DNA of 64,000 nucleotides, taken from assembly GCF_017348835.2 (NCBI RefSeq), contig NZ_CP071375.1. One strand, written 5' to 3'. Every line of letters begins with the position of its first letter. Positions within the stretch are counted from its first letter, which is position 1. The notes below the pieces were generated by a model. That model was not told the DNA's origin and did not search any database. It saw nothing but the letters and a program-made list of their open reading frames with translations. Position numbers and translations under genes: made by a program. The stretch is from Escherichia coli. GTDB taxonomy: Bacteria > Pseudomonadota > Gammaproteobacteria > Enterobacterales > Enterobacteriaceae. Below are positions 5,416 through 7,957 of the stretch, piece by piece.

Positions 5416-7957
5416 ATGAAAAATAGAAATCGTATGATCGTGAACTGTGTTACTGCTTCCCTGATGTATTATTGGAGCTTACCTGCACTGGCTGAGCAGT
5501 CGTCAAGTGAGATAAAGATTGTTCGCGATGAATACGGCATGCCGCATATTTATGCCAATGATACATGGCACCTATTTTATGGCTATGGCTATGTAGTAGC
5601 ACAAGATCGCCTTTTTCAGATGGAAATGGCACGTCGCAGTACTCAAGGGACTGTCGCGGAAGTGCTTGGCAAAGATTTTGTGAAATTTGATAAAGATATC
5701 CGTCGTAACTACTGGCCGGATGCTATCCGGGCGCAAATTGATGCCCTTTCCCCAGAGGATATGTCCATTCTGCAAGGCTACGCTGATGGAATGAATGCCT
5801 GGATTGATAAGGTAAATACCAATCCAGAGACGCTCTTACCAAAACAGTTTAATACATTTGGCTTTACTCCTAAGCGCTGGGAACCGTTTGATGTCGCGAT
5901 GATATTTGTGGGCACCATGGCAAACCGCTTCTCTGATAGCACTAGCGAAATTGATAATCTGGCACTGCTAACGGCTTTAAAAGATAAATATGGTGTATCA
6001 CAAGGCATGGCGGTATTTAATCAGTTGAAATGGCTGGTAAACCCATCAGCGCCAACCACTATTGCCGTACAAGAGAGTAGCTACCCACTTAAATTTAATC
6101 AGCAAAACTCGCAAACAGCAGCTCTGTTGCCACGCTACGATTTACCTGCACCAATGCTTGACCGACCAGCAAAAGGGGCGGATGGCGCACTGCTGGCGTT
6201 AACAGCAGGGAAGAACCGGGAAACTATTGCTGCACAATTTGCACAGGGTGGTGCCAATGGTCTGGCGGGGTATCCAACGACCAGCAATATGTGGGTGATC
6301 GGCAAAAGCAAAGCCCAGGATGCGAAAGCAATCATGGTAAATGGTCCGCAGTTTGGCTGGTATGCGCCTGCGTATACTTATGGTATTGGTCTGCACGGTG
6401 CTGGTTATGATGTCACTGGCAATACACCATTTGCCTATCCTGGGCTGGTTTTTGGTCATAATGGTGTGATTTCCTGGGGATCAACGGCAGGTTTCGGCGA
6501 TGATGTCGATATTTTTGCTGAACGGCTGTCGGCAGAGAAACCAGGCTACTACTTGCATAATGGTAAGTGGGTGAAAATGTTAAGCCGTGAGGAAACCATT
6601 ACGGTGAAAAATGGTCAGGCAGAGACCTTTACTGTCTGGCGTACGGTGCATGGCAACATTCTCCAAACTGACCAGACGACACAAACGGCTTACGCTAAAT
6701 CCCGCGCATGGGATGGTAAAGAGGTGGCGTCTTTGCTGGCCTGGACTCATCAGATGAAGGCCAAAAATTGGCAGGAGTGGACACAGCAGGCAGCGAAACA
6801 AGCACTGACCATCAACTGGTACTATGCTGATGTAAACGGCAATATTGGTTATGTTCATACTGGTGCTTATCCAGATCGTCAATCAGGCCATGATCCGCGA
6901 TTACCCGTTCCTGGTACGGGAAAATGGGACTGGAAAGGGCTATTGCCTTTTGAAATGAACCCTAAGGTGTATAACCCCCTGTCGGGATATATTGCTAACT
7001 GGAACAATTCTCCCCAAAAAGATTATCCCGCTTCGGATCTGTTTGCCTTTTTGTGGGGGGGGGGCAGATCGCGTTACGGAGATCGACCGACTGCTTGAGC
7101 AAAAGCCACGCTTAACTGCTGATCAGGCATGGGATGTTATTCGCCAAACCAGTCGTAAGGATCTTAACCTGAGGCTTTTTTTACCTACTCTGCAAGCAGC
7201 GACATCTGGTTTGACACAGAGCGATCCGCGCCGTCAGTTGGTGGATACATTAACACGTTGGGATGGCATCAATTTGCTTAATGATGATGGTAAAACATGG
7301 CAGCAGCCAGGCTCTGCCATCCTGAACGTTTGGCTGACCAGTATGTTGAAGCGTACCGTAGTGGCTGCCGTACCTATGCCATTTGATAAGTGGTACAGCG
7401 CCAGTGGCTACGAAACAACCCAGGACGGCCCAACTGGTTCGCTGAATATAAGTGTTGGAGCAAAAATTTTGTATGAGGCGGTGCAGGGAGACAAATCACC
7501 AATCCCACAGGCGGTTGATCTGTTTGCTGGGAAACCACAGCAGGAGGTTGTGTTGGCTGCGCTGGAAGATACCTGGGAGACTCTTTCCAAACGCTATGGC
7601 AATAATGTGAGTAACTGGAAAACACCTGCAATGGCCTTAACGTTCTGGGCAAATAATTTCTTTGGTGTACCGCAGGCCGCAGCGGAAGAAACGCGTCATC
7701 AGGCGGAGTATCAAAACCGTGGAACAGAAAACGATATGATTGTTTTCTCACCAACGACAAGCGATCGTCCGGTGCTTGCCTGGGATGTGGTCGCACCCGG
7801 TCAGAGTGGGTTTATTGCTCCTGATGGAACAGTTGATAAGCACTATGAAGATCAGCTGAAAATGTACGAAAATTTTGGTCGTAAGTCGCTCTGGTTAACG
7901 AAGCAGGATGTGGAGGCGCATAAGGAGTCGCAGGAAGTGTTGCACGTTCAGAGATAA
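5416..7957 (+). pseudogene. pac: penicillin G acylase (Ntn-hydrolase; signal peptide, alpha subunit, spacer, beta subunit starting SNMWVIGK), interrupted by +1 frameshift in G10 run
   Basis: ORF 5416..7098 and ORF 6992..7957 together give the full PGA sequence; frames differ by +1 at G run 7055-7064; 2542 nt = 846 codons + stop + 1. Confidence 0.88.

Follow-up and report, generated by a model that had tools for sequence, protein, structure and literature searches.

A slippage-prone poly-G tract as the probable cause of recurrent inactivation of the chromosomal penicillin G acylase gene in Escherichia coli

The chromosomal pac gene in the 64,000-nt stretch of Escherichia coli DNA analyzed here (the window) carries ten consecutive Gs where its reading frame calls for nine, and we consider it likely that this G run is prone to slippage, that the tenth G creates a null allele, and that the tract is a hot spot at which the gene has been switched off repeatedly. 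The product of pac, penicillin G acylase (PGA), is a periplasmic enzyme that scavenges phenylacetyl-amides and is also an industrial enzyme. No single uninterrupted open reading frame (ORF) for the 846-aa precursor is found in the window; the frame breaks in the G run and stops at 7098 (Table 1). Judged from its sequence, the window copy is to be regarded as a pseudogene or null allele and not as a functional member of the PGA family.

Table 1. Features of the frameshifted pac gene and their positions in the window
Feature	Position	Strand	Remarks
pac, penicillin G acylase precursor gene, frameshifted copy	5416..7957	+	2542 nt, equal to 847 codons plus 1 nt
Upstream frame: signal peptide, alpha subunit, spacer, beta residues 1-260, 11 out-of-frame residues, stop	5416..7098	+	From the ORF list; subunit limits from PDB chains
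Poly-G tract, 10 Gs	7055..7064	+	Last two bases of the Trp547 codon, two Gly codons, and base 1 of the Ala codon; in frame at nine Gs
Authentic continuation displaced by one base: CA of the Ala beta261 codon, then DRVTEIDR... to Arg846, stop	7065..7957	+	From translation; includes beta-Arg263
TGG codon, Arg744 to Trp	7646..7648	+	Marker of the PE164/window lineage; from sequence comparison

The original prediction, made from the window sequence, described a pac frame starting at 5416 that is broken and reaches a stop at 7098, with the authentic continuation lying in the +1 frame up to 7957. Translation bears out both parts: the ATG-initiated ORF from 5416 encodes 560 aa and ends at the stop codon at 7096..7098, and the next frame carries the pac continuation up to the stop codon at 7955..7957. 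The length of the gene agrees with the prediction that the two parts sum to 846 codons plus a stop plus 1 nt. Positions 7050..7069 read TTTGT GGGGGGGGGG CAGAT, which codon by codon around the tract gives ...TTT TTG TGG GGG GGG GGC AGA TCG..., so that the run starts within the Trp547 codon, takes in Gly548-Gly549 (beta259-260), and finishes on the first base of the Ala550 codon. The junction had been placed in this run and nine Gs had been proposed as the intact state; when G10 was replaced in silico by G9, an 846-aa protein without interruption was obtained. The corresponding in silico versions with G7, G8, G10, and G11 gave truncations of 559-566 aa, and G12 gave 847 aa. Besides the pac G run, no homopolymer in the 64-kb window exceeds 8 nt. 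Runs of at least eight Gs number six in the window vs 1.1 expected, the other three falling within tRNA-Leu genes; these G8 runs, at 37533, 37653, and 37768, lie in three tandem tRNA-Leu genes on the minus strand at 37525..37846 (PE164 annotation).

The identification of the gene as penicillin G acylase, also made in the original prediction, is upheld by near-identity to the enzyme of E. coli W and by solved structures. The G9-repaired window gene differs from E. coli W pac by 15 nt and 6 aa, and the repaired protein matched solved E. coli PGA chains in the PDB with a phmmer E of 0. Limits taken from the PDB chains place the alpha subunit at precursor residues 27-235 and the beta subunit at 290-846 (1gk9_B, aligning to beta 1-557). 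The N-terminal nucleophile is present as Ser290 in ...TTSNMWVIG..., which aligns with residue 1 of the beta chains and whose codon lies at 6283. Both frame fragments carry Pfam PF01804 (Penicil_amidase) in precomputed annotations, and in G10 genomes the gene callers list the continuation as a separate 304-aa Penicil_amidase (PF01804) fragment. The sole NCBIfam hit was PvdQ, far below cutoff, and the family assignment is therefore built on PDB, Pfam, and PGAP, the last of which annotates the identical sequence in strain A29 as "penicillin G acylase, frameshifted". The pac gene of E. coli W/ATCC 11105 (PDB 1PNK and 1GK9) is the same gene in the same locus, yjiS-pac-yjiA beside btsT and the hpa cluster. 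Neighboring genes in the window are arranged as in strain W (yjiR, yjiS, pac, yjiA, yjiX, btsT, and hpa genes), and the annotations of A29, PE164, and W all place pac between yjiS and yjiA, next to the hpa cluster. In strain W, pac occupies the site of the immigration-control region of K-12 (PMC3032704). The genes flanking pac are on the opposite strand, so that no polar effect of the frame break is expected.

With ten Gs, the frame is lost after beta-Gly260, and beta261-557 is missing from the product, beta-Arg263 included. We take beta-Arg263 to be required in PGA for both catalysis and precursor processing. Because beta261-557 is gone, the 560-aa truncated product is expected to be inactive.

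At the tract, E. coli W has the interrupted allele TGG GGT GGT GCA (GGGGTGGTG), in which Gly-Gly is encoded by GGT GGT without a long homopolymer, whereas the window allele encodes the same residues as GGG GGG plus one extra G, out of frame; the two codons differ from those of W by two synonymous T-to-G changes. Comparison of the alleles identifies the run as a lineage feature in which two silent GGT-to-GGG changes fused the Trp-Gly-Gly-Ala codons into an unbroken G9. Among 1074 pac-positive complete genomes, approximately 383 have the interrupted allele (exact 89-nt probe from W). No allele with just one of the two T-to-G changes was found, the one-mismatch hits being flank single-nucleotide polymorphisms (SNPs) with G9 or G11. 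An allele from O145 strains (P0018) was considered as an intact G9 control and rejected, as it has the interrupted GGGGTGGTG allele; it served instead as the outgroup. In the mechanism that we propose, the two synonymous changes would create the unbroken G9, at which slipped-strand mispairing during replication would gain or lose single Gs. At ten Gs, translation would leave the frame after beta-Gly260 and terminate 11 codons later, and the product, unable to form active enzyme, would make the copy a null allele. A return to nine Gs could restore the gene.

Tract length was compared among pac-positive strains, a check that had been suggested with the original prediction: complete genomes had tracts of 8-11 Gs, and in a wider collection the range was 6-13 (Table 2). 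The first survey covered 5426 complete E. coli genomes, 1074 with pac, and counted tracts with exact 88-91-nt probes, three partial matches being subtracted; in these complete genomes, 49% of the exactly matching G-run alleles fall out of frame. Of the copies whose PGAP annotation was inspected, the four with G8, G10, or G11 are labelled frameshifted and a G9 copy intact. The second survey was an exact look-up of predicted products in a collection of 15 billion proteins and gives counts of contigs, not of genomes; no product of G14 or G15 was found in it. The length spectrum is unimodal and stepwise, the shape to be expected if slippage had occurred around a length that was ancestral or selected. 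Homopolymers are error sites for every sequencing platform, and part of the population counts must therefore be noise. Most of the product-bearing contigs measure 2-50 kb and come from draft assemblies and metagenomes, so the length variation is not confined to long chromosome-scale assemblies.

Table 2. Length of the pac G tract in complete genomes and in the wider protein collection
Tract	Predicted product	Complete genomes (exact probe)	Contigs (exact product look-up)
G6	845 aa, in frame		1
G7	559 aa		25
G8	565 aa	51	552
G9	846 aa, in frame	302	at least 1000
G10	560 aa	210	610, plus 542 and 107 on two other N-terminal haplotypes
G11	566 aa	25	165
G12	847 aa, in frame		21
G13	561 aa		15

Three options had been offered for the break, namely, a sequencing or assembly artefact, a real inactivating mutation, and a slippage-prone tract. 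The last two are favored at the population level, where lengths of 6 to 13 Gs recur on identical flanking haplotypes in assemblies that range from long chromosomes to small draft contigs; for this particular assembly, an artefact is nearly as probable as a real tenth G. The original prediction had also held that other pac alleles sharing ten Gs but with alternative downstream codons would speak against it, and such an arrangement was found solely in a rare 845-aa allele (P0024, 2 contigs). In this allele, G10 is accompanied by the loss of one CGAC unit from the 4-nt tandem repeat at window positions 7084..7091 (CGACCGAC), 20 nt downstream; the 4-nt deletion restores the frame and changes ADRVTEIDR to GRSRYGDR, an intragenic compensating frameshift.

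Changes in tract length have recurred on otherwise identical backgrounds. One repaired full-length protein haplotype occurs with G8, G9, G10, and G11, and four further haplotypes occur with two tract lengths each. In an alignment of approximately 17.4 kb around pac from 43 loci (16,505 gap-free columns), tract length differs in many locus pairs that are separated by only 0-3 SNPs per 16.5 kb. On a neighbor-joining tree of the 35 G-run loci, at least 18 length changes are needed, which is not below what label shuffling gives (mean 19.3 changes, with 18 or fewer in 28% of shuffles), in a sample that was stratified by length and de-duplicated, which inflates apparent homoplasy. Tract states are at the same time inherited clonally. 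Strain HS has G8 in four separate assemblies, the oldest of which was presumably Sanger sequenced; the UTME-9/10/12/14 group and the mouse isolates M6-M19 are uniformly G11; and a perfect 12,090-nt match to strain AMA1167, G10 included, is common to at least 93 complete genomes, so that one clone contributes at least 93 of the 210 G10 complete genomes. This consistency within clones makes random per-assembly error an unlikely source of the variation. What emerges is a real hot spot, apparently mutating far faster than the surrounding bases and far slower than classical phase variation. Apart from the tract, 23 of 24 sampled out-of-frame genes are intact; such preservation would follow from the tract changing much more readily than the remainder of the gene, and these copies could in principle revert. 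The single sampled out-of-frame allele with additional decay, in the G10 genome GCA_016109365.1 (locus L012), has a second frameshift caused by deletion of a T from a T7 run (window 7176..7182).

Whether the tenth G belongs to the cells from which this assembly was made is a separate question, and we place it at roughly even, leaning towards a real tenth G. The competing account, to which we give somewhat less than an even chance, holds that the tenth G arose in consensus building or polishing and that the strain truly has G9 and an intact pac, like the closest genome, PE164 (from a pig, Nanjing; RefSeq assembly version 2), of which the window may be an earlier assembly or a sibling isolate. 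The window and PE164 differ by 0 substitutions and two 1-nt indels over 64,000 nt, one of them being G10 in the window vs G9 in PE164, whose copy is annotated as intact (WP_233708264.1). The other indel is a C missing from the window at 22450 in the hpaR-hpaG spacer, outside homopolymers (AATTG-AGGGA vs AATTGCAGGGA); 481 complete genomes contain this region, and none of them matches the window version exactly. The missing C probably reflects a consensus error or a private mutation, and its uniqueness, the signature of assembly error rather than of divergence, suggests residual consensus errors and lowers trust in the indels of the assembly. Against an error stands a marker of the lineage: a nonconservative Arg744Trp change (beta455; codon 744 CGG to TGG, window 7646) is private to the window/PE164 lineage among the haplotypes sampled, and the C-terminal fragment joining G10 to Trp744 was found on 11 contigs, about as commonly as the intact protein joining G9 to Trp744 (9 contigs). 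Four of these, in the Logan assemblies of SRR31611469, SRR27418558, DRR860506, and ERR14374684, from three archives, are 100% identical to the window over 1.2-4.9 kb, ten Gs included; the variant, which as an artefact should be absent from independent data of the lineage, is present in four independent run assemblies. Both tract states occur with Trp744, so both exist within this narrow lineage, and elsewhere G10 is heritable, as in the clone of at least 93 genomes.

The tract might also be a true contingency locus, the G run being kept by selection for reversible ON/OFF switching of a periplasmic acylase that would be made, for example, in the environment and silenced in the gut; we regard this as unlikely. 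The arrangement has the right form, with a frame-setting repeat inside an ORF (G9 and G12 in frame; G8, G10, and G11 truncated), a stepwise length spectrum around 9, about half of the G-run alleles in complete genomes out of frame, out-of-frame genes that are intact apart from the tract in 23 of the 24 sampled, and a tract state without phylogenetic signal on the locus tree. However, the states are stable over the long term, as seen in the four HS assemblies and the at least 93 identical G10 genomes, and the implied rates are well below those of classical phase variation. Although G9 is dominant, the contig counts show no enrichment of in-frame G12 (21) over G11 (165), and no clear one over G13 (15), in a sampling biased by clones, so that mutation alone can explain the spectrum. 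Insertions of IS1203 and IS3 in pac in O111 and other strains, moreover, fit plain dispensability. A further proposal, that G10 is still expressed by recoding through RNA polymerase slippage on C10 or a +1 slip of tRNA-Gly(CCC) on GGG-G, strikes us as highly improbable. If the tRNA slipped by +1 from GGG onto the overlapping GGG, pairing would again be perfect and ...WGGADR... would be restored, and E. coli RNA polymerase is known to slip on long homopolymers, the tests in PMC6260861 being of A/T runs only. Yet conservation of the out-of-frame state is lacking, with G9 and the interrupted allele in the majority; G8 and G11, for which other corrections would be required, are frequent as well; and the slip site has no following pause codon, GGC being a common codon. 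Recoding was rejected as the main explanation, the out-of-frame arrangement not being conserved among homologs and shifts of both signs occurring.

This tract resembles simple sequence repeat (SSR) contingency loci, the phase-variable poly-G/C genes of Neisseria, Haemophilus, Campylobacter, and Helicobacter, in that the length of an intragenic homopolymer sets the frame, near-identical strains differ in length, and the spectrum is stepwise. It differs from SSR contingency loci in its E. coli host, in acting on a periplasmic scavenging enzyme rather than on a surface or restriction-modification function, and in a clone-level stability that suggests a much slower rate. To our knowledge, SSR contingency loci are uncommon in E. 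coli. Like the homopolymer pseudogenes that PGAP marks as frameshifted, identical copies of the window allele are so annotated in RefSeq, but unlike one-off homopolymer pseudogenes, the pac site has been hit repeatedly, in both directions, and across the species.

The gene is a textbook one, and homopolymer frameshifts as a type of lesion and the PGAP flag are likewise known already. What appears to be new is the pac tract as a species-wide, recurrent on/off hot spot arising from two silent changes. Full-text literature searches found no description of polymorphism in pac tract length, an absence that is no proof of novelty, and GeneTack and homopolymeric-tract surveys did not mention it. The frameshift is best read as a recurrent natural class of allele rather than as a mere homopolymer glitch, and pipelines that autocorrect such frames or score gene presence would misjudge the pac phenotype in roughly half of the strains with the G-run allele. 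Screens of strains for PGA based on PCR or gene presence would gain from a check of the tract. As a well-replicated natural case in E. coli in which two silent substitutions lead to a mutational hot spot and repeated gene inactivation, pac makes thousands of public genomes usable to estimate how fast G:C runs slip in the wild and to study repeat-based switching in this species. E. coli is not known for homopolymer phase-variable genes; if a contingency switch were true, pac would be among the very few homopolymer phase-variable metabolic genes in E. coli, and lineages would toggle phenylacetyl-amide scavenging between host and environmental phases.

Several other lesions and repeats were observed. 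An IS1203 (IS3-family) insertion additionally splits pac in many O111:H8/NM strains, and the G tract of IS-disrupted copies appears still to vary, as judged from match spans of 3857, 3858, and 3859 nt. The chromosome of NZ_CM135829.1, labelled "strain DH5alpha", carries a W-type pac allele; a K-12 derivative should be without pac, and the record may be mislabelled. A second repeat-slippage pseudogene lies less than 3 kb from pac: yjiR (a PLP-dependent aminotransferase/GntR-type regulator; 3310..4723, minus strand) is frameshifted by an extra GA unit at approximately 3913..3926, with (GA)6 in the window vs (GA)5 in strain A29, and PE164 shares the lesion, which PGAP marks as frameshifted. In A29 it is btsT (locus L001, 6840..8545) that is flagged as frameshifted, its (AC)n repeat being longer by one AC, whereas the copies in the window (at approximately 10821) and PE164 are intact. 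At 45723..46143, the window contains tandem palindromic units of approximately 101 nt that are REP/BIME-like (GCCGGATGCGGCGT... motifs), with self-matches of 94-96% identity.
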